A stretch of 63,641 nucleotides of DNA, the filler included, from Basidioascus undulatus (Eukaryota): the NCBI GenBank assembly GCA_000826855.1. It is 7 parts of 7 records of this genome, joined end to end, with 100 filler letters (N's around TTAATTAATTAA, not from the genome) between each part and the next. Parts side by side here need not be neighbours in the genome. Positions count along the whole stretch, not along the records: positions 36,669 to 60,521 come from JTLS01000254.1; 6 more parts are not named here. One strand, 5' to 3'. The translations under genes were made by a program, and so were the position numbers. This document shows positions 7,835 through 54,036 of the stretch, one piece after another. The number at the start of each line of letters is the position of its first letter. The stretch's first letter is position 1. Below the pieces are notes generated by a model. The model saw nothing but the letters and a program-made list of their open reading frames with translations. It was not told where the DNA came from and did no database searches.

Positions 7835-10800
7835 GTCGACGATGATGGTCGGAAACGAAGAGGCAGTGTGTTGAGAGCGCGCGACTCGAAGCGCACTTTG
7901 GAAAAAGCTCCGCGGCATCCTGTACGCGCTCCAGTGCACCGATTTTGCCTCATAGCACACAATATTCATGTGGCTTTTCAGGTGAGATAATTTAATGGAG
8001 CAGGACGCCGAACGCATGGCGGTGCGCGCAATGATCTTGGGGGATCTGGTCAATCAGGGGAGAGCCCTCGTGCTCGTGCAGGACCAAGCGACCTTGACCC
8101 CCTGCACATGCTGCGCCTTCACACGCCCGCTCAGCATCGGGTTGCTAAAGGCCGCGAAGAGCTCGTCAAGCAGGGTGCAAGGTAGCGAGGAGAGAGGCGA
8201 GCTTGTTGAGGTTTGATGGCTGGGAGTGGGGTGGGGGTAGGGACATCGTGGTCTGGGAATAAGGGCTGAAGGTGCGTTGGTACCTCAAGGAAGAGGGACG
8301 AGCAGGTGAAGGTCGGAAGGCAAGCGCGACGCGACGAGCCTGAGCGCGGCGAGCGCGGAAAGAAAGCCGAAGCGGCTCCAACGTCGCTCCACCGCATAGC
8401 CGCAAAACGATACATCACAGGCGACAGCGTCAAAGTACATTACATATTTCGTGCCTGCTGCGCAGTCAATCACTGCCTCGAATATAATCTAGCAACGTCT
8501 GAGGCAACCAACTACTGCTCTGCCTTATGAAACTGAGGCAGCACACGTCCGGCTCGTACAGCCGTACACAATATGGGGACAACAATGGGGGGCGTACACA
8601 TCCTCCTGTGATGGTTTGTCAATCTCATGTACTCTTGAAACACAGGGCCGCATGGTCCATATACAACGCGCCGTTTGGCCGTCGTTAAGCAAGAAAACAT
8701 GCGTGAAAAGAAATTCGTTGTCCACCAACAACGACCTCTCCGTACGATTGACACACCACTCATTGAGTTCTTGTGAGACAAAATGTACAATAGAAAGTGT
8801 GGAAAAAGTACAGGACAGAGGTAAATGAGAGGGAGGAGAGCGGGTCGCTCCGCTGCTGACTGCCAGTGACAACGTAGCGGCAGCCATGTCGAAGTCTACG
8901 AGGACAGTGGGGGTACCAAGCAGCCCGTTGGGAAACCCATTGGCATAAAACATAGGCAACCATATCCAAGAGAAGGATATCGTCTCTGAAAGTATCACAA
9001 GGCACGCGCTGCGTCTCGGACAGACCTCAGTCGAGCCTGCGGACGACTTCTCAACCCTGCTCACTCCTTGCCTTCTTAGGCCTTTTCCCCACTCTAAATT
9101 ATAGTGTTTGTTCATTCCTCCCAAGACATACTTCTTCGGACGCATAGCCATGCGCTCACAAGGCTAGGATGGTGCGCGCACGCATGCGATGTTCGCCTGC
9201 TCGCGCCGCTGAACTAGTGCAGCAAATATCCTGTAAATGCTTTATCAAGGCAGGAGCAGCCGGCAACGAGACGATCAAGGTGCGTAGTAAGTATTTAAGA
9301 AAATTGATGGAGACTTTGAGACTCTCGGTATCTCTTCCCAAACATCTTTTCCACGAGGCGGAAGCAGCATGGCCACCGCTGCGTTCTGTGAACGTTCGGA
9401 CGCAGTCGCCTGTGGCTTATTGTCTCATGCTATGCTCTTCGCCATTTTGCTACACCATTCAAGGGACTCCTTAGCGCCTGTGTCTCAGTCCGCATAGCAA
9501 ACCCTCCCATTTGATACCTTTGGAATGATCATCTTCGGCATCCGCGGCAAGTTTCGCGAGTTGTGGTACTGGTGGAAGTACGGCGAGTGCGTGTCTCATC
9601 TGGAGATTGACCGAAGTCTGTACTACAAACCTGACATTTCGATGAACAGCGACGCGAAGTACGAGCTCTACGACCGGGGCTGGGCCCGAGAGCGGGAGGG
9701 GAGGATGATCTGGTGGCAATGAGGGGCAGGGTGCAATTGTGGCACGGACGTGCGTTCGACTGCAAACAGACCAGTAATGTGTGGGGATACATTATCCTTT
9801 ACAATATATGGGAGCTGTGTGCCTTCTATTCAAGAGGCAGAGGCTTGGTTCGCAAGGCCCAGCAAGCATGTCTCATCCTGCGGTTAGTCACCTTTCGCGG
9901 GCACGGCACGGGCATGGGGAACTCTCCAGGCAGAATAAGAGGAACACAATCCTCACCCCGGAACAATGGAATGAAGCGTTCCGATGGTCAAAACCACAGA
10001 TTTGCGCAGGTTGCGAGTCCTCTTTGCGCCAATCTTCACAGTCGCAACGGGCCTTGAATCTAACGCCACTACCCGCACCATTCAGCTCACCATGCCCGAT
10101 CTCGAGATGCTTCTACGCCGCCTGTTTTGCGGTATATGCCCGGGCGAGTAAGTGTCGAGCTTGCGCGTACTTCAGCGGGCATTAGCGGTTGAAAGAAGTC
10201 GGAGCCTCCACAGCTTGGCGTTCTACCAGCGACGACGCCCGCAGTGGAATCAAGGGATAAGGCCTAAGCCATCGACATGGCCATATGGGCCGAGATGGCC
10301 ATCGGGTTAAGGGTGGATTGAGGAAGGCAGGGCGAAGGGCAAGCGAGAGGGAGTAGAGGGCGGGGGTTATGAGCGGATGGGGATCGAGGCAGCGTGGTCG
10401 CAGCAAGGTCATGAGCATGGCATGAGCATGGCATGTGAGACGAGGGTCGATAGACCGAAGGCAATCAGCATTGAAAGGACGTTGTACGATCAGATGGGGG
10501 ACCGAGAAGGCGACAGCTGCGTCGGCAGTGCAAGTCGACCGCCTTGGAGGGGCAGGCTATCGGCAAGTCCAGCGGGCTGGCCAGCGCGATGAGACAAAGG
10601 AGACAGGCAGGACGGACTGCGAAATCTGAAGTGCTGTGAGCTTTGTCGCCGGACTCCCTCCCTTCCGTAGCACCGTGCCAAATCCAGCACACTCTGCAGC
10701 CTCCGGCAGGCGACCAGCGCTTGATCTGCCCATAACCCACCCTCTACGGCACCCATTCAAACCAAATTGTCCGTACCTCAGCCTCCAGCTCCCGACCTCC

Positions 10801-41745: not shown

Positions 41746-44426
41746 CTAGCTGACGCCCCGCTTCTTGCCGCTGCCGCGCTTTTCGAGCTCGTCGCGGAGG
41801 TAGGTGAAGATGCGTTGGGCGCGTTCGCCGGTGGGCTAACCATCAGAAAATGCGGGTGTGTATATCAGCATCGAGTCAAGCTAGGGTTCTCGATAGGGGA
41901 GGAGAAAGCCGCACCTCTTGCAAGCAGGCGATGAGCTTTTCGAATAGCTGTGAGGGGGCCAGAGGCGTCAGACGGGAAAGAGTGGTAGCGAAACGGCAAC
42001 CTACAGAATTATGATACCGCTCCTCGTTCTCCAAGCTTTTCCTAAACCGCGCGCTCTGTGCCCCCAAGCACCCCGAAATCAGCCCGCGCTCATGCGCCCC
42101 CACGACGCAAGAGGAGATAGCCTACCTCCTCCGCCATACCCTCCGCCAGCCCCTCCGCTTCCTCAGAGCGCGCTTTGGCGAGGAGGACCTCGAGCTCCTT
42201 CGAGCGCAGCACGGCCTCGAAGTGGCGCTCCCGGAGCTCGTACTGCCGCAGGACTTCCTTCAGGCGCTGTCGGACGCTGTTGAGCAAGCGAACGATGTGG
42301 ACAGGTGAGCGAGGCCCTGCTAAGCAAGGGAGAATAATGGCAGGAAGGAAACGTGCACGATATCGAACCGCTTATTCAGGCGCGTTTGGGTTCTGTGAAG
42401 GAAAACGCGTCAGTCAGGGCGCGCTTGGAAGCACGCAAGCCAGACCAACTCTGAGAAGCTTGCCAGTAGCGCATCAATGTCGAAGTTATTCGGACCGAGC
42501 ATATCCTGGCTAACGTGATCCTGCATTCGACGCGAGTATGAGCGCAGGGCCGAAGCGCATGTCGAGCAACAGGAGGTCATACCATAGCCTCACGCGCCGA
42601 CGCCCCGCTCGAAGCGCACAGTCTGCGAAGCTTCGAAACGACGCGCAGCTGCTCTGTCGTCCAATCCGACTACGAAGGGAGAACGGGCATGAGATGATCT
42701 GTTCGAAAACAGACATTACGGATAGTTGCGTACGGGCGTAGGATCGCGCTTGAACTCGCTCTGGAGGACAGAGCGGGTCGTGTTAATCGACTTGAGCGTC
42801 TGGACTTCCGAGTGGGTGAGGTCGTCCTGGGAGTGCATACACCGTCAGCCGAGCTCAGCAGCTATGATCTGCAGATATGCAACGCACCTCGTACGGCGCT
42901 GAAGTCAGGTCGAGCTCCTCAGTCGCGATGATCTCGTCCCCCTCCTCCATGCCGAGCATGTCCGGCGTCTGCACGGGCGAGATGAACCTTCCCGCATTGA
43001 GGAACAAGAACCCGGTCGGCGGCGGGGGCTCCCTCTTCTCCAACTCCGGCTCGTCCGCGCTCTCCTCGCCGTCCGCGTCCTCACCCGCCGCGTCAGCAGC
43101 GGGCGCAGGCGCGGCAGGCGCCGCTGCTGCCGGCGTGGGAGGCGCCATGCGCTCGCTGTACACCGAGAAGAGCCGCGCGAGCGTGCTCGACTTGCGGACT
43201 TTGAACCAGAGGTCCGCGCGGCCCTTGGACGTCACCTTCACGCGGATCTCAGCGCCCGCGCTGCTTGAGGTAGAGGTCGACGCGGTAGATGGGACGCGGG
43301 AGGAGGCAGTGTGCGAGGGTGGGGGGAGGTGCGCTTTGCGTTCCATCTCCGACCTGATCGATTCAAGGTCCGCGCGCGCGGCTTCAACTGACTCTTCCAG
43401 CCGGCGCATCTCGTCCTGTTTGGCCGAAATTTCGGGATGAGCTGCTGCGATGCGAGCGGGAAATTCACATTCAGGACCTTCAGCCGCTTATTCTCCTGTA
43501 AACACGCCAGACACACTCAGCATTGTTGTGGACTGAGAAGGAAAAAGCGAGACGCACCTTCTGCAGCTCCCTCGCGAGCGACTCAAGCTTAGTCCGAGTA
43601 GAATTGGCCTTCTTCTCGTTGCCCTTAGCTATATCGCCAGGACGATCAAGTCAAATCTCGCCGTGACCCGCATCGCATCGCTGATCGTGCGCACCAAGGT
43701 CCTTGTCCTTCAACAGCTTCTGGCGCTCCTTTGTGTGCTCACGCTCCAGCCGCTTCATCTCCTGAAACTGCATCCCCCATCCTATTCAGTCTGCCTGCCA
43801 TCTGCGCTTTCAGGCCGTTCAAGTGGAACAGGACAGACGAGGTCGAGATACTTGCTCTCCATGACCGACAGTGGGTCGTTCTGCTCGCGAGCGGCTGTAC
43901 TAAGCTCCCTCGCAGCGTCCCGAGCCTGCTTGGCTGTCGTTCACCATCAAAGGGAAGTCAGCGCGCTTCTCTCGGGGACAGCAGCCTGCTGCGCTACCCC
44001 GCCCTGGCTCCCCACCGCGCCTTCGCCCCCGCCTCGCGCACTCCGGACTGCATCCGTGCTATTGTATCCACGCGCCTGCACCTGTGACTCACCGATGTTC
44101 CTCTCCTCCTCCTCCTCCACCTGTCCTTCGTTCTCGAGCGCGGCAATCCTGTCAAGCCCGACACCTGACCCCATCAACCACCCCGTCCCATCGCGGCCTG
44201 CTCAGATGCGCCCGCACCTGCTCTGGATGCCCTCCAGTACGCTCGCAGGATCAGGCGGCGGCGCCTTTTCCTTCTCCGCCGCCACGTCCTTCTTCTTCCC
44301 CGCGGTTCTGCGTGGGGTGCCGGGCGTGCTGGGGCGCCCGTTAGGAATGACCGGCGAGCCGGACGGAGTAGAAGTCGTGGAAGCGGCGGGGACGGATTGG
44401 GTGTTGTTGGTGTTGGTGGGTGTCAT
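41746..44426 (-). CDS. Taxilin-like coiled-coil protein with internal SUMO-like/ubiquitin-like domain
   Basis: Taxilin-type segments RTKLESLARELQKENKRLK and LKEVLRQYELRERHFEAVLRSKELEVLLAKAR flank IRVKVTSKGRADLWFKVRKSSTLARLFSVYSER...FLFLNAGRFISPVQTPDMLGMEEGDEIIA. Confidence 0.8.
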
Positions 44427-45051: not shown

Positions 45052-47134
45052 TCACCGATACTCGGCCCCGCAATCCCCAATGCTCTCCCACATCCGCCTC
45101 CCTTGGCTCCTCTCCAACACAGCTTCAATAGCTTCCCGATCCGCTTCGTCCAGCGCGAACTCAAACACCCGGTGATTGTCATCCGCGTTGGAAGACACGC
45201 CGAGACGGGCACCTAATCTGCCGTATCAGCGACTGCAGCACTGGGAAACCCGGAAGAACAAAAAGAAGGTGGACAAAGACGAACCGATGATGACTGCCCC
45301 GACGGCCTTCTGGTCGAGCACCCATCGCGTCGCGACATTCGCGACGCTCATGCGGTGCTTCTTCGCGATGCCGGACAGCGTCGCGAGGAGGTCTTGGAAA
45401 AGGGACCACCCGCCCCAGGCGAGGATCATGTCGTAGTACTGAGCGCACCCTCACATCAGCGTTTCTTTCTCGTCGAAAGCTGCGAAGGCAAATGCGGGCG
45501 CACTTTGCGTTGGGAAGGCGTAATCGTGCTGCTGTACGTGTCTGGCTCGAGGCGGCCGACCCACTTGTCGGAGAGGAAACCGCCACACTGCAAAGGAAGA
45601 CAGCGTGATGCGTCAGAAAGGAAGCATGGGTATTGAACGAGATGCATCGCAAGAACTGGGAAGACTCACCAGAGTGCCGTAGGTCAGCAGCTTGACGCCG
45701 TGCTTCTCGCAGAGGTCGCACATCGCGTACAGCGGTCGAGTATCAATGAGCGAGAACTGTGCAAGATCACGGTAGATCAGATCAGCACTACTTCAACTTC
45801 AGGCCGACCCCATGACACGCTATACCTGAATCTGGTTCGACGCAATCGACCCGGCCGGCAATGCCTCGCAAACCTCCTCCGTCGTGCGCGAGTCGAAGTT
45901 ACACAGTCCCACTGCGCCGATAACTCCCTCCTCACGAAGGGTAAGAAGGTGTTGCAATGCAGGAATGTACTGCTTGTCGGAGTACTGTGCGCGAAATCTT
46001 GCCTGTCAGATGCAACAGATCGGGGTGCGGTCATAGGGAAAGGGGAGCGCACATCTTGCCAGTGGAACTGGAGTAGCTCTACTGAGCGTGCGCTGAGGCG
46101 CGAGAGACGCTCTTGCACGGCGGAGAGGACGGAATCCAGTGTGATCGACATGGGTCGGAAGACACACCATTTCGTCGCGCCGAGGACGGAGGAAGGCGTT
46201 TGAAGGGTGGATCGGTAGATGCCCTGCTCGTCATTTCGCATGAAATTCAGCTTTTCCGAGCTTCGATAACACTGCGTACTAAGAGAAGTTCAGCGTCGCC
46301 ATAGTGATCGCTGCAGGGGAAGAAGACAAGTCCGGGTAAGTCCTGAGCCACAGTGATTGGTCTGTAAGAGAACACGGAACGCACGCCATGTCAAATGCTG
46401 TATATCCCTTGTCCACGCTCTCCTTCAGAGCATGGACGACCTCACGCTCGGACGCCGTGCCCCACGAAGCGCTGCTGAGCTGCCAAAGACCGAGGAACAG
46501 CCTCGGAGGGGTGAAAGGCCCGAGCGCGAACGTCGGCAAATGTGTCGATTTGACGATCGAAAGCGAGTTAGAAGCCGTCGGGGTAGGAAGAGGCGGCATA
46601 GGCGGAGCCGGTGCGAAAGCGGGCGAGTACGAGAAAGCAGCGAGGAGGGCCCTCGGGAAAGCGAAGTCCTGACGATTCCTTTCCAGAGCCTCCGCCAGCG
46701 CATCCCGCAATTGCCCCAGCACCTGCGCAGCCTCCCTCTCGCGCGCCGCGTCGCCCTCCAGCCCACTCTCCTTCAGGCTCTGCAGCACCTGGACGACGTC
46801 GTGGTCGGCGCGCTTCTCGTCCGCCTCGTCCAGGCCGTGCGGGATGACCTGGAGGGCAAGCAAGCGGAGCGCCTGGAGCGGCTGGCCCGCGCACGAGAGG
46901 CACCCCGCCCGAAGGAGAGCGTCGCTCGGCGTCCGCGGGGAGTATGGGCGCGAGAGACGGGCTCGAGCGAGAGAGGCGAAAAGAGACGGGTTCGAGGGGT
47001 GCCCTTGGGCGAAGAGGGCCCGGACGAGCGCTCGCAGGTCATCCGCTGGGAGGTTTGCGATGAGGGTGTCGTGCACTAAAGAGAAAGAAATGAGTTATCG
47101 CAGAGTATGCGTGCAATGATACTCTCGCACTCAT
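45052..47134 (-). CDS. Aldo/keto reductase with ~150-aa N-terminal extra domain
   Basis: PRLFLGLWQLSS, FDMADHYGDAE (Asp/Tyr), ATKWC (Lys), LLQFHWQDY (His), GLCNFD, SNQIQFSLIDTRP, LLTYGTLCGGFLS, TPSQRKY and GDCGAEYR*. Confidence 0.9.
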
Positions 47135-47546
47135 GGAAACATGTCCCAGTGCTGGCGCATTGGAGCGCACGCCTTCCGGTTTAGTAGGTGAGCCCATCGT
47201 CAAGACCGATTAACGATCGATCTGTCAGAGTGAAGATGAGAAGAAGGAAGCCTTTGAGATGATTGTGATCAGTGTTGAAGAGACCCGCATGGTCGATCGG
47301 CACCAGTAATGTAGCGGGCGAACAAAGCGTTTCAAGTCGACGATGCGGGGGCATGCGAACTCGGCATGTGCGGCGGTGCAGCGGCAAGTCCCTGCAGGTT
47401 ACGCAAGTTCACCGCGGCTGCCGAACTTGCACTGTCTTCTCTCGCCACAGTCGCGTTGCCTGGGGGAAAATGTAGGCATTCCGGGTTCTCGTGAGTGGGA
47501 TGATATCTTATACCACCTTGACTCTCGGAGAGCAGCTTCCACAACG

Positions 47547-48050
47547 ATGGCCAAGTCGAAGATTGAGACCTCTGCCCCGTCGCCGCCCTCGCTCGCCGCG
47601 GACGAGTTTCAGCTTTACGATCTCCGCGTTGAGGTCGTTTGTCCTCCGGGACAGCGTATAATGTGTAAGTGAACACCGAGGATCTTGCGGTGGTTCCCGA
47701 TACTGACCTCCTTTTGCTGACACCTGAGGCGGAGCCAAGCCGGGTGACTGCTTCGAGCTTCGAGGCGAAATGCTGCACCTCCCTCCCGGTCAAGGATTCT
47801 CCATCTACTCCTTGGGTATATCAAATTTTGAGAGTCTACCAACGTGATATACTCACACCGCGCACTTGCAGGTGCTCTACTACCCTTGCTTGCTGCCAAG
47901 CAGCGACCGACAGCTCGAGCCGACTGGATGTCGACAGACTCGATCATCGCGTGTCCTGACCCCGAGTGTCCGAGCCAGTTCCGAATAGTCCGGAGGGGTT
48001 TGAGGACCTTCAAGCACAGCGATACCACGAAGGTACCTATCCCTGAATAG
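47547..48050 (+). CDS. TIGR04076-like Cys-containing small protein (~127 aa, 3 exons)
   Basis: Spliced DEFQLYDLRVEVVCPPGQRIMCGAKPGDCFELRGEMLHLPPGQGFSIYSLGALLPLLAAKQR...DWMSTDSIIACPDPECP. The C..K.GD.F and ACPDP pattern is recognised as the mainly prokaryotic TIGR04076 family. Confidence 0.78.
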
Positions 48051-48171
48051 CTCGATGGACACGCATAAAGTTTTCCTGTTGTCCTTGCGCAGTCTGCAGG
48101 TCTGCCTGAAGTGCAACGCGACCAAATAGATCGTGAAGAGCTGGAGCCAGATGGCAACAAAGTCTATAAAC

Positions 48172-49952
48172 CTATACCCTATCGTCTCCATCCCTAAGCT
48201 GCCGCGTGCTCTTATCGTCCCCAGCACTCTCCCCCTCCTCCGCCTTGTAGCCGTACGCAGCTGGGCTCGGCAGCCTGCCGAGGGCTTTGACGTCGACACT
48301 CTCCCGTCCGCTCTCCACATAGACGTCGTGGGCGGTATCGACCTGAATGGCCGTCCGAGATGGAAGTTGAATCTCGTCCCGGATCTGCATCACATACGTC
48401 AGGTGGGTGGGCTTGGGGACAACATCGCCGCTAGGAGAACCGGGGAACGCACAGTTTTGCGGCCGTGCGACTTGGACCGAGAGCGATCCCGTCCCCACGA
48501 AGCGGAGTTGGACCCGGACGGTGCACCGGCGCGGGCAAGGACGGTGCGAAGGTCTACACGGGAGAGAAGGGTGACGAGCACGCAGCTGCAGAAAGATTGC
48601 GTCAGCACGGGGTGGACACAGCGTCGCACGTCGACTGACTGTGAGTAGATTTTGGACAGGTTGAGCTCGAAGACTGGTGAAAGGCACGCGGTCAGTCTTC
48701 TTGACATAACACGATGCTGGGTAGGATGTCGTACCGACGGTGAGTGCGGATGTTTTCCAAGTCACTCCGTATGCGATAACGGCAGCGAGAGCTAATGCAA
48801 GGACGTCAGCATTGTAGGCAGGCCCTCCGTCAAACCCGGGTCGCTAAGACGTACCCCAGACAACAGTCATTCCGCAGGTCTCGAATGTAAGGATGAGGAT
48901 TTTCTTGATGACTTGATCCTACAGTTCGTTCCACTGATGAGACTCGAGTCAGCGCAACTTCGAAAAGTGGAAAAGCTCACAGTCGCTGCGAAGCCGCTCT
49001 TGCGACGACTCAAGTACCACACAGAGATGGCCGCAATAATAATATCCGCCCCCGCAGCACCAGCCAGGAACAAGACCGCAAAGGTCTGAAGGTGGGATTT
49101 ATCCGTGGTTGCACTGAGCTATCAAAATTAGTCGCGGGCTACAGGTTGGTCTGGACGCATGAACACGTACCCGCTTCCGAGCCGTATTTGCTCAATCGCG
49201 TATCTATAGAGATACGTCTGAGTGAGTGTACTACACAATGGGTAGGTGTCAAGTCCTGTATCATGCGTACCCGAAACCCCCTGCGAACGAGGTGAGCATA
49301 GCAAGGACAGCGAGCACGAGGACGAGCTTCGAAGTTGCGAGTCGGTACGCCCGGTTAACGAAAAAGAACTGGGCAATTATGCCCGCCAGGGCTGACTTAA
49401 AGTTGACAGAAGTTAGATGACCCTAGAATCGGCAAATGGTCCTAACTAACAATCAATGGCTCGATCCTAGCGCCCGAGCACGATCAATATTACTTTCATG
49501 ACCATGAGCCGAAGGAGGAAGCACGCACCAGTACGTGGCAGGTTGTCTTCGGTAGTCGTTGAAAAACTCCGTATCTCCATAGCCTGTCACGAATGCTTTG
49601 TAAAGAAGCTCTCTGAAAACCACACCTGGTCAATAGAAAGGTAAGGTGTCGCCATGCGTAGGGGAAAACACCTACACGCAGCATGCCGCCTGGAACACCC
49701 CAATCGCGGCGAGCGCAGCGACGATTGTTTTGTTGATTTTGTTGTCGCGCGGGAACATATGGAAGTAGTCCCAGCATTGCTTCATCAGAACGCCCTGTTC
49801 TCCGTTCCTCTTCAGATGCGTCCACCAGCTGACGAGGTACTCGAGGCAGGACTCACATTGAAATTCTGCTGGAGCAAGACTGCCATGAGGTACGGCCCAT
49901 TGACCGGGACCAGAGCCCGCGCGTAGCTTTCCGCGGTGCTTGATACGCTCAT
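48172..49952 (-). CDS. Multi-pass membrane protein (basidiomycete DUF6534-like)
   Basis: GPYLMAVLLQ..GVLMKQCWDYFHMFPRD, IAQFFFVNRAYRL, ADIIIAAISVWYLSRRKSGFAATDQVIKKILILTFET, and a hydrophilic C-terminal tail. Confidence 0.65.
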
Positions 49953-51034
49953 TCTGATCGTCCAGCTGGCTGCGCTGCAGGCACCCAGAGGAAAGCGACG
50001 AGGTGGTGAGGGGCGAGTTGCTGGAGAAGTTGCGGGAGCCGCAGCAGGAACTCCGCCCCATTTCCGAGTCGGCGTCGGTACAATGATGGGATACAGGGGA
50101 TCGTCGGGGCTTGTGCATGTTGCGCGTTGGTCAGCTTCGACAGCGTGCAACACATCAACTTTTTCTGCGAACTATTGGCCATCCGGAGCTAGCAGTCGCA
50201 GATCGGCACCATCAGCATGTGTTCTCCGAGCTTAATAAGACCTTCTACAGTAATCCTGATGCTAAATATTGTGGGGCAAGCTTCGCAACCTCTAGTTCGT
50301 ACCTGCAGGGTGCCACACAGGAGAGCAAAGGAGCCGGGATGCAGGCACACATTGCGACGCTAAAGCCCATATGCACCGTCTATCTGCACAGCATAACAGG
50401 TGACATGACGTTCTTCCACACCATTTTTGTGACTGCACTTACAGCCTCAATACAGCCTCAGAGAAGCTCCCGGCACTTCAGCAAATCGGACACGCACACA
50501 CACGACGAGCCGTGCCAGCTTGGAGACAACATGGGAGAGCTCTTTTCTCGGAACTGCCAAGGCCACCAGTATTCTTTTGCATTGCACTTGTTCCACTAGA
50601 CGGATCAATGATGATCAAGTTAACATCCACAATGCGCTTGTACCCCGCATCTTGACTGCATCCTTCCTGCAAGGGACCCTGGGCACGGCCCTCGTCGCAT
50701 CCACCTTGCGTCGTCGAAAATCTAGCGGAGTCTGTCGCATCATGATCGTGCCGGTATCTATATACTTAGTGCTTCGGTAGAAATTGCGCCTTCATTGTGC
50801 ACATGCTCTGCACATGCAAAGATATCCGAATTTGTGGAACATTGAGAGGGAGATCAGGGGCCGCAGGCACGATGCCGAACTGCGTTCCTTCTGCGTGGTA
50901 AGCCGAAGGCCGAGCGACTGTGTGAGCTGTGCGAGGCACCGACCGGGTACGTTCTGACTACCTGCCACCATCTCTTCTTCATCGAGAGGAGATTTGGAGA
51001 CGTTCTCTCGTTACCCTCCTCTCTGTAAGGAGAC

Positions 51035-54000
51035 ATGCCCTCATCAACCAGCGATGCTGCTTCCCTGAAGGAAGCAGACGTTTCCGCGCTCGATCTGGAG
51101 GGGCTGCCTCCTTCCTACGAAGGGAATGATGACGGTGAGTGGTATACCCTGAGAGAAGCCAGGTAGAGGTACTGATTTAGATGCTTACCACCTTCGCAGG
51201 TCGACCTCGTCTGAGCGCGAGGCACCTTCAGTTCATTTCGATAGCGGGGATGTGAGCAGGCATTTTCCCTAGTACCTCGCTGGCCCGTGTACTGACTTGA
51301 TGCCTATGTGCAGGATCGGAACTGTACGTTGCACTTTGCCCAAGACTAGGGACTTGGCTCACCTTCCTTCTCCTAGGGTCTCTTCCTATCTTCGGGAAGC
51401 GCTTTGTCTACGGCCGGACCTCTTGGTGCGCTTTTGGGCTATATGCTGGTGAGATTCAGTGGAGCTGCGTGGAAAAAGAAAAGAAGCTTTAGCTTATATT
51501 TCTTCCTGCGCGGCAGATGGGCGTTATTACGGCTGCGGTAATTCTCCGTGCAGTGTCCCCTTTTGCGAGATAACAGCTAACGCTGTAAGTGGGTAGGTGT
51601 CCGTCACCGCTGGAGAAATGTCGAGCTTCATGCCCGTCAGCGCGGGTTTCGTACGGCATGCGACGAAGTTCGTGGGTCCTGCCGTGTACGTGCTCGCTCG
51701 GTCTGTGTCCTGTGGCGCTGCTAAAGCTGTTCGCGCAGAGGGGCCGCGACCGGATTCAACTTCTGGTACTCGATTGCAATCCAGATTGGAGTCGAGGTCA
51801 CTGCCTCCGCCATCTTGAGTTCGTCGGGACGGCATCAAGTTCGCAGACGCAATGCTGATCTACAATTGCCGAACAGTCTCGTACTGGAACGCCGACATCA
51901 ACAACGCCGTCTGTGAGTGTCGGCTACGAATCCCTGCTAGGAACAGTTTCTGACAGTCTCAACAGGGATTACAATCCTTGTAAGGGGAACTGACAATGGC
52001 CTTCAGTTGGCACCCTCTGACCAGAACTTTGTACGCAGCTCATTCCCATCTTTATCCTCAATCTGGTGGACGTCCGCTTCTTGTGAGTCTTGTCCCAATA
52101 GTCGAAGAGCTCCCCCAATGAAAATCTTTGACCTATTTTGCTACTTATCAAGCGGAGAAGCCGAGTTCGGGTTTGCTGCCCTCAAAATCTTGTAAGAAAT
52201 GTACCGGAATGCTGTGTATTCAAAGGCTGACCTGACACTACAAAGACTGGTTATCATCTTAATCATTGGGGCAAGTCTTCCTCTACTGTGCGCGAAGAAA
52301 TGGCGAAGTCCTAATTTGTTCTGCAGGGGTTGGTCGTGGATCTCGGAGGTGCGGCTGCCGCGAATCTACAATGCGTCTCGAGCTAACGCGTGCCACACAT
52401 AACAGGAGGACCGAACGGCGACAGAATTGGTTTCCGCTTCTGGAATGATCCTGGTGCGAGCGCTTGCCTTTTCGAGGAACCGCGGTAGCTGATTCACCTA
52501 CAATAAACCTCAGGCGCGATGAACAGCTACCTCGTTCCGGGTGCTTCTGGGCGTTTCCTGGGCTTCTGGTCCACTCTGACCAACGCAGCGTAAGAGGGAA
52601 AGCCTGTCCAGAGTGCAAGTAGCACGCTCATTGGGACTTTTGCTCTTCAGGTTCGCATACGGTAACGTCCAAATTGTTGCCATTGCGGGTGCAGAGACTT
52701 CCGATCCGCGTCGAGCCATTCCTAAGGCTGTCCGTCGCACGTACGTTAATGGTTTCCTTTCATTTAAAATCACACTTGTTTTGATAGTGATATTCCTTGC
52801 CACACCAGTTGGGTTCGTGTGGTGTTGTTCTATGTTTTGAGCATCCTCATCGTGGGCATGATCGTGCGGTCGGAGTACGCACACCACACTTTCTCTTCTC
52901 TTGTGAAGAGCTGACATCTCTTTGCAGCGATCCGAACTTGAACGATGGTAGCGGTACCGCCACTCAGTCGCCCTTCGTAGTGGCTTTCAACCGAGCGGGC
53001 ATTACAGTGCGTCGACAGCTATTTCACTTGTTCTGTTCATTCGCTAAACGTCTTGAGCCTTCTTCGTCTTCCAGGGATTCGCTCACTTCGTCAATGCGGT
53101 CGTTCTCACCGTAACTAACATTGAAGCCAACATTTCAGCGTCTGAGGCTGAGACTCTCTTTCTGGCAGTCTGCTTTTTCGTCCGGCAACTCGTGCCTGTT
53201 CATCTCCTCCCGCACGCTCGTTGGTCTTGCGGTGGACGGCCTTGCCCCCAAGCTCTTTACCCGCCGGAACCGTTTTGGATCGCCGTGGGTCGCCGTCTGC
53301 GGATCGGCCTGGCTCGGGTTGTTCGCCTACATGAGCTTGCAGTCGACCGCATTCGAGGTCTTCAACTGGCTCATCAACCTCTCGGCCATCGCTAGGTATG
53401 GGCAGTCTCTTGTTCCGGTTACCTTCGAGTGCATCGACTGAAATAAACTGGTTGACAATGTAGCTTGATCAGCTGGGCGATTCTGTGCTTTACTTACTTG
53501 CGCTTCCACCGCGGTCTGACAGTCCAGGGCCTCTCTCGGAATGGTGCGCAGTACAGCTCCTTGATGTCATGCGCAACGGTCTGACAGACTCTTGTATCTG
53601 TAGACCTGCCCTACAAGAGCCCTTTGCAGCCTTACACTGCCTTTTTTGGCTTCTTCATGTGCATTGTCATCACGTTCTTCTCTGGCTTTGCCGTCTTCTT
53701 CCCAGACAACTGGTCGGCGTCTGCGTTCTTTTCGTGCGTATCCGTCTTTCTCAGCTACCTTCTACTGTCCCCCATTGCTGACACTGAAAATGAGGCACTC
53801 GTAGGAACTATCTGAACGTCTTCGTCATCATCGTACTCTTCGCGATCGCTAAATTCGCCATATGGTGGTCCGACGGATTCATCCGGACTCGGAACTGGCT
53901 GGGGATGTGGAGCTTTGCCGGGGTTATTCCGGCTCGCGAAATGGACTTCTCAGAATTCGAGGCGATCCGGAAGGAGAACGAGAGTCGAGTCGAGAAGCCC

Positions 54001-54036
54001 CTGCGTGGGTGGACACGGTTATGGGATCTTATTTAG
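51035..54036 (+). CDS. Amino-acid permease (APC superfamily, YAT family), about 20 introns
   Basis: LSARHLQFISIAGMIGTGLFLSSG, GEMSSFMPVSAGF, GEAEFGFAALKI, IGFRFWNDPG, AGAETSDPRRAIPKAV, SPFVVAF, SSGNSCLFISSRTL and LPYKSPLQPY. Confidence 0.92.

Follow-up and report, generated by a model that had tools for sequence, protein, structure and literature searches.

The window analyzed here, 63,641 nucleotides of Basidioascus undulatus DNA (assembly GCA_000826855.1; seven parts joined end to end), contains a block at positions 45052-54036 (within record JTLS01000254.1) in which an aldo-keto reductase (AKR) gene on the minus strand and a small gene of the TIGR04076 family on the plus strand lie head-to-head, followed by a gene for a multi-transmembrane (multi-TM) protein (minus strand) and a YAT-type amino-acid permease gene (plus strand). 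The AKR and TIGR04076 genes probably work together in an undescribed pathway, and the coupling of the two families, conserved across domains of life, is strongly supported. In the bacterial loci examined, the two families were neighbors in 80 cases out of 80, and their spacing of ∼350 bp in the fungus is, therefore, poorly explained by chance. We consider it on balance likely that the two genes form a module consisting of a reductase, the counterpart of a bacterial AKR designated AKR2 below, and a Cys3-His TIGR04076 protein of ∼115-130 amino acids, and that this module is, in Proteobacteria, the core of a small-molecule utilization cluster.

Gene models for the block were built by three-frame reading combined with GT-AG splice logic. 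They bore out the head-to-head arrangement claimed by the original prediction, with the AKR and a small cysteine-containing gene being divergently transcribed. The start codons had been placed about 410 bp apart, which holds (413 bp) if translation of the AKR begins at the ATG at 47134; with the in-frame ATG further upstream, at 47197, the distance is 350 bp. The upstream codon is preferred because the N-terminus it provides, ending in GHVSM and then continuing with MHDT, matches a motif (AHVNMMTDT) conserved in the Pezizomycotina orthologues. Judged from this comparison, the AKR probably starts at ATG 47197 and not at ATG 47134.

One genome per bacterial or archaeal species was scanned, which yielded 555 relatives, and the best 80 of these 555 were kept together with their surroundings (mostly Alphaproteobacteria, some Burkholderiales, one Steroidobacteraceae, and one Myxococcaceae). 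In all 80 loci, the high-scoring segment pair of an AKR from the same broad subfamily began 0-55 nt downstream of that of TIGR04076, on the same strand; in Mesorhizobium loti (locus L043), the spacer between the stop codon of the TIGR04076 gene and the ATG of the AKR gene (AKR1) was 10 nt. This linkage and the TIGR04076 identity of the small gene were the two sequence-based points on which the original prediction could have failed, and neither refuted it. The usual cluster consisted of two arms. On one strand lay a GntR/FCD regulator, TIGR04076, AKR1, and a LivK-like binding protein; the divergent arm contained LivG, LivF, LivH, LivM, and AKR2. LivK was found in 69 of the 80 loci, LivG in 72, LivF in 71, LivH in 64, LivM in 63, the GntR/FCD regulator in 57, and RidA in six. 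The second AKR, AKR2, was present in half of them (40/80). The AKR2 of M. loti carries the motifs of the fungal AKR, including the tail (GDCGDEYR), whereas AKR1 does not, which agrees with the original statement that bacterial relatives of this AKR subtype occur near TIGR04076 genes. It is encoded by a single open reading frame (ORF) of 530 codons (4185-5777 of L043, minus strand), in which residues 63-356 form the AKR domain and residues 416-528 a RidA/L-PSP domain; RidA-like sequence adjoins AKR2 in six of the 80 loci.

Four of the variant loci that lack the full Liv set (L066, L054, L076, and L075; ∼6-15 kb) are informative with regard to transport. In these, the pair adjoins an SSF transporter, an MFS transporter, or a TonB-dependent receptor, and the same loci also hold a DAO-family oxidase, an M20 peptidase, a family-3 solute-binding protein, and an opine-oxidase-like flavoprotein. 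Since the pair is kept while the transporters change, the TIGR04076-AKR pair is the constant element and the transporter is replaceable, which makes the YAT permease a reasonable candidate for the substitute in the fungus. When every bacterial ORF with 70 or more amino acids was compared with the window (tblastn), only AKR and TIGR04076 matched, and every match fell at 44-48 kb. All-against-all clustering of the ORFs from 25 loci revealed no further widely conserved cluster member. Some bacterial clusters contained extra genes (9151-9981 and 11394-11822 of L017; 11397-11801 of L015): in L017, the regulator and TIGR04076 are separated by a DUF3830 gene, and in both L015 and L017, AKR1 is followed by a SnoaL/DUF4440-like gene. 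No paper on DUF3830 was found in the literature searched.

The identity of the small gene product (127 amino acids) as a TIGR04076 protein, which had also been predicted, was corroborated by full-length homology to fungal proteins that themselves pass the model: seven of seven scanned homologues scored above the cut-off (45.7-58.8 bits), and the M. loti homologue reached 63.1 bits. The cut-off of 33 bits is set for a whole protein, and the window protein was scored as single exons, of which exon 3 alone reached 27 bits (E 4.8e-6), matching positions 46-88 of the 91-position profile, and neither exon 1 nor exon 2 matched on its own. The alignment with TIGR04076 homologues spans all three exons and confirms both intron positions. 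A homologue search with exon 3 returned 649 proteins at E ≤ 0.001; among the best 120 of these 649 were 10 named fungal proteins (from Aspergillus species, Auricularia, Dendrothele, Gloeopeniophorella, Mucidula, and Multifurca), and six named proteobacterial proteins, with several of these entries labeled TIGR04076. Identity to the named fungal proteins, a set that includes six of the seven homologues scanned, amounts to 57-77%, and the window protein is closest to basidiomycete sequences (75% identity to the Mucidula protein). Identity to the proteins of the bacterial loci is 42-75%, with a median of 66%. As identity between fungi and bacteria is as high as that within fungi, the small protein evolves very slowly. 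Three cysteine columns and one histidine column are invariant or nearly so in an alignment of 117 sequences, and they correspond to C40, C96, C101, and H117 of the window protein.

An AlphaFold model of a fungal TIGR04076 member was obtained with good confidence (predicted local distance difference test, pLDDT, 86.8; predicted template-modeling score, pTM, 0.77). Comparing this model with the PDB by Foldseek gave no match at E ≤ 0.001 (best, 0.15), searching PDB sequences with the TIGR04076 profile gave only a chance-level match (E 0.94), and the ESM Atlas returned only clusters of the family itself, one of them automatically named “putative 4Fe-4S binding.” Prediction of a complex between AKR1 and the TIGR04076 protein of L043 yielded 0.00, against a mark of 0.34, which counts neither for nor against binding. 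In the searched literature, no functional study of TIGR04076 (also under IPR023811 or CHP04076) and no description of its pairing with an AKR was found. Where the family is mentioned, its role is guessed: as “redox or iron cluster metabolism” in a table of a Bilophila cluster (PMC8667426), and as “putative fimbriae-associated” in a passage on strain-specific genes (PMC12487256).

The product of the AKR gene comprises an AKR domain of ∼330 amino acids, preceded by ∼185-205 amino acids of extra sequence. Exon 8 alone matched PF00248 with 29.5 bits (cut-off 24), four other exon pieces matched collinearly below the threshold, and a fungal orthologue (P0121) scored 135.3 bits against the same model. 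All motifs from which the AKR subtype had originally been recognized are present in the gene model (GLWQL, ADHYG, LLTYGTLCGGFL, and GDCGAEYR). D, Y, K, and H residues within FDMADHYG, ATKW, and QFHW are invariant or nearly so in the AKR alignment; these residues are the putative AKR catalytic tetrad. In a full-length alignment, the window AKR was 38-46% identical to 120 fungal proteins, mostly of ∼540-560 amino acids, and identity within the AKR domain reached up to 56%. The AKR is not a patchy import; the two-domain protein occurs widely in Pezizomycotina. Introns throughout 45-54 kb are dense, short, and GC-rich; eight of them (55-82 nt) interrupt the AKR gene. Together with the small protein's closeness to basidiomycete sequences and the branching of the AKR outside all sampled Pezizomycotina, this points to a fungus from outside Pezizomycotina, possibly a basidiomycete.

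Among the bacterial enzymes, AKR2 is closer to the window AKR (37-47% identity) than is the AKR1 that adjoins TIGR04076 (31-38%). The placement of the window AKR was examined in a maximum-likelihood tree (careful search, 74 rows), which has no reliable root and from which two very long outgroup rows were left out; a quick tree including these two rows gave the same grouping. The window sequence and 24 Pezizomycotina sequences form one clade (100/99), with the window branching outside the others. This fungal clade is sister to 19 of the 20 AKR2-labeled rows plus one other, non-adjacent AKR (100/100); the remaining AKR2 row (L040) falls outside that group. The fungal and AKR2 clades together sit among AKR1-type rows. 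In the tree of the small protein, a single split (100/93; bootstrap not fully settled) separates 11 fungal rows from 46 bacterial rows. For both genes, the fungal clade is, therefore, sister to the sampled bacterial clade and not nested within it, the sampling being that of the 80 loci chosen via TIGR04076. Both trees are compatible with one ancient origin for the two genes in fungi, with ties to the same type of bacterial cluster. No relevant paper was among the entries listed by a broad literature search on AKRs and horizontal transfer.

A scheme for the joint function of the two proteins can be proposed. A transporter, namely the LIV-type ABC system in bacteria and possibly the adjoining YAT permease in the fungus, would import a small molecule that is amino-acid-like or otherwise contains nitrogen. 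The AKR, presumably NAD(P)H-dependent, would then reduce a carbonyl intermediate or catalyze the reverse oxidation. The TIGR04076 protein would act as an obligatory helper, most likely as a small protein with a redox or accessory role that binds a metal (Zn or Fe) through its Cys3-His site. That the compound is amino-acid-like is suggested by the LIV-type binding protein, the RidA fusions, and the DAO and M20 neighbors. A module for transport and transformation of an amino-acid-like compound, as originally predicted, is plausible. A far-reaching version of this scheme would make the TIGR04076 branch described here a Cys3-His metalloprotein whose fold lacks a solved relative and the obligate partner of one AKR clade, involved in an undescribed catabolic step for a common nitrogen compound, the genes having passed once between Proteobacteria and an ancestor of Dikarya and being still linked in at least one fungal lineage; taken as a whole, we regard this version as unlikely.

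Several observations weigh against the proposed module or narrow its reach. The bacterial loci were picked by similarity to TIGR04076, so that the figure of 80 out of 80 describes this subfamily and not TIGR04076 genes in general. Linkage of AKR and TIGR04076 within fungi rests on the one locus described here. Bacterial TIGR04076 abuts AKR1, whereas its fungal neighbor is of the AKR2 type; the pairing is, thus, conserved at the level of the subfamily and not as strict orthology. Neither the permease nor the multi-TM gene has a counterpart in the bacterial loci (tblastn with all bacterial ORFs). The nearest solved relatives of the LIV-type binding protein are binders of Leu, Ile, and Val, at no more than 84 bits, which constrains the substrate class only weakly. 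Last, the intergenic region shared by the two genes (47198-47546), their putative common promoter of ∼350 bp, contains no HGATAR (GATA-factor) site, where the window as a whole averages 0.47 per 349 bp, and so offers no hint of nitrogen control by a GATA factor.

Against this background, other explanations have to be weighed. In the full form of the original prediction, the YAT permease and the multi-TM protein would be dedicated, co-regulated parts of a strict four-gene catabolic cluster. Two divergent gene pairs lie within 9 kb between unrelated flanking genes, and the bacterial analogue includes a transporter; however, permeases are common, and finding one within 3 kb is not rare, which leaves this arrangement possible but rather doubtful. 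Somewhat less credit is due to the idea that the pair is a unit for carbonyl or redox-stress detoxification (e.g., of reactive aldehydes) and that the permease and membrane genes are unrelated neighbors. Annotations of COG0667-type AKRs often read aryl-alcohol dehydrogenase-like or general stress protein, and the nearest solved chain is itself named “General stress protein 69”; the permease lacks a counterpart in the bacterial loci, and the AKR is widespread in Pezizomycotina while the 10 fungal names among the best 120 of 649 TIGR04076 matches span few genera. In most bacterial loci, however, the pair is accompanied by a dedicated regulator and an uptake system, and some transporter is kept even where its type changes. 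This pattern is typical of utilization clusters and not of stress genes, and detoxification is, hence, quite improbable. That the head-to-head arrangement is coincidental and the genes functionally independent, for which it could be said that only one fungal locus has been seen, is scarcely credible given their adjacency here and in 80 of 80 bacterial loci and given that the nearest non-fungal relatives of both genes reside in the same type of bacterial cluster. A secondary-metabolite cluster was also considered and rejected, since the block lacks a backbone enzyme and the bacterial surroundings are those of uptake and regulation. The reading of AKR and TIGR04076 as a two-gene module is, therefore, preferred. 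Its strict partnership with one AKR clade would give the widespread TIGR04076 family a first concrete and testable functional context, and the bacterial clusters provide an experimental route to the substrate, the identity of which could then be transferred to the fungal genes.

The sequence preceding the AKR domain merits separate consideration. Because the extension and the start of the AKR domain are encoded in one exon (47075-46385), their fusion is real in this genome. The extension aligns from residue 1 with the Pezizomycotina proteins of ∼540-560 amino acids and is conserved across fungi. Its predicted structure (pLDDT 80.1) is helical over residues 1-150. No Pfam family matched the extension; a Foldseek search of the model against the PDB gave nothing at E ≤ 0.001, the hits above this threshold (best, 0.25) being generic helical repeats throughout, and every match in the ESM Atlas stayed below 0.9. 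With exon 2 as query, a search among longer proteins gave one match, and a search of representative sequences gave 184 matches at E ≤ 0.001, mostly fragments; each of the matches listed in the latter reaches the start of the AKR domain or comes within a few residues of it. These matches are consistent with an extension that is fixed in fusion with the AKR. The resulting protein, a predicted helical N-terminal domain followed by a barrel, is thus an uncharacterized type of AKR that is widespread in Pezizomycotina.

The remainder of the block agrees with the original prediction in that a multi-TM protein and a YAT permease are encoded beyond the small gene (coordinates of all features are compiled in Table 1). 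In the multi-TM gene, four of six candidate pieces contain a hydrophobic 19-mer (Kyte-Doolittle ≥1.6). One of the six pieces matched DUF6534 with 16.3 bits, below the cut-off of 28.2, and this family is, hence, a lead only. The permease pieces matched PF00324 collinearly in six of 10 cases (best, 60 bits; cut-off 24.6), and TIGR00913 (2A0310, YAT family) was the best NCBIfam model for three of three pieces tested; its whole-protein cut-off of 578.7 bits is out of reach for single pieces. The multi-TM gene is convergent with the small gene and divergent from the permease gene. Given also the orientation of the small gene and the AKR gene, the block consists of two divergent gene pairs. As for the flanking genes, which had been described as taxilin-like and UVE1, the latter was supported by a UvdE match of 51.5 bits, whereas the Taxilin match was weak (19 bits; cut-off 30.3). 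Beside the Taxilin match, an ORF at 42858-43487 (minus strand) gave a borderline match to Rad60-SLD (SUMO-like), with 23.5 bits and a cut-off of 23.8.

Table 1. Features of the B. undulatus block, in positions of the window.
Feature	Position	Strand	Basis or remark
AKR gene, nine exons	45052-47197	-	Introns GT-AG, 55-82 nt; end of stop codon at 45052
AKR exon 1	47197-47131	-	67 nt; followed by intron 47130-47076
AKR exon 2	47075-46385	-	N-terminal extension and start of AKR domain
AKR exons 3-9	46310-46280, 46223-46053, 45984-45826, 45756-45670, 45587-45504, 45438-45285, 45212-45052	-	
Predicted all-helical N-terminal extension, ∼185-205 amino acids (exon 1 and 5′ part of exon 2)	46525-47197	-	One ORF with start of AKR domain
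AKR catalytic domain (3′ part of exon 2 and exons 3-9)	45052-46524	-	Collinear PF00248 pieces; tree placement
Putative divergent promoter region common to AKR and TIGR04076 genes	47198-47546	.	Gene-model coordinates; 349-bp spacer
TIGR04076 gene, 127 amino acids (exons 47547-47664, 47729-47815, 47872-48050)	47547-48050	+	Homologue alignment over full length
Multi-TM membrane protein gene (limits approximate, exons partly resolved)	48172-49952	-	ORF pieces; hydrophobic 19-mers
YAT-type amino-acid permease gene (many short exons, start approximate)	51035-54036	+	Collinear PF00324 pieces; TIGR00913

Compared with the AKR superfamily (PF00248), the fungal protein shares the domain matches and conserves residues at the putative tetrad positions, but every solved AKR is distant, at only 66-73 bits; the solved chain nearest to the fungal type is GSP69 of Bacillus subtilis (1pz1, “General stress protein 69”), and that nearest to bacterial AKR1 is MtmW (6ovq). 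It further differs from the superfamily by the C-terminal GDCGxEYR tail, which it has in common with bacterial AKR2, and by the predicted all-helical N-terminal domain of ∼200 amino acids that the fungal form carries. Compared with the TIGR04076 model, the proteobacterial and fungal branch is longer (∼112-130 amino acids versus 91 positions), extremely conserved, and tied to an AKR. The bacterial counterpart of the pair belongs to clusters of the LIV/HAAT-type ABC uptake kind, with LivK-, LivG-, LivF-, LivH-, and LivM-like genes and a GntR/FCD regulator. The fungal locus, in contrast, has neither Liv nor GntR/FCD genes, and any uptake in the fungus would have to proceed via an unrelated APC/YAT permease. 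In the prn proline cluster of Aspergillus nidulans, an example of a fungal nutrient-utilization cluster, catabolic enzyme genes are transcribed from a bidirectional promoter, with a YAT permease gene alongside. The B. undulatus block resembles this cluster in its divergent enzyme genes with a YAT permease gene beside them, and differs from it in that no gene for a pathway-specific transcription factor was seen within the block.

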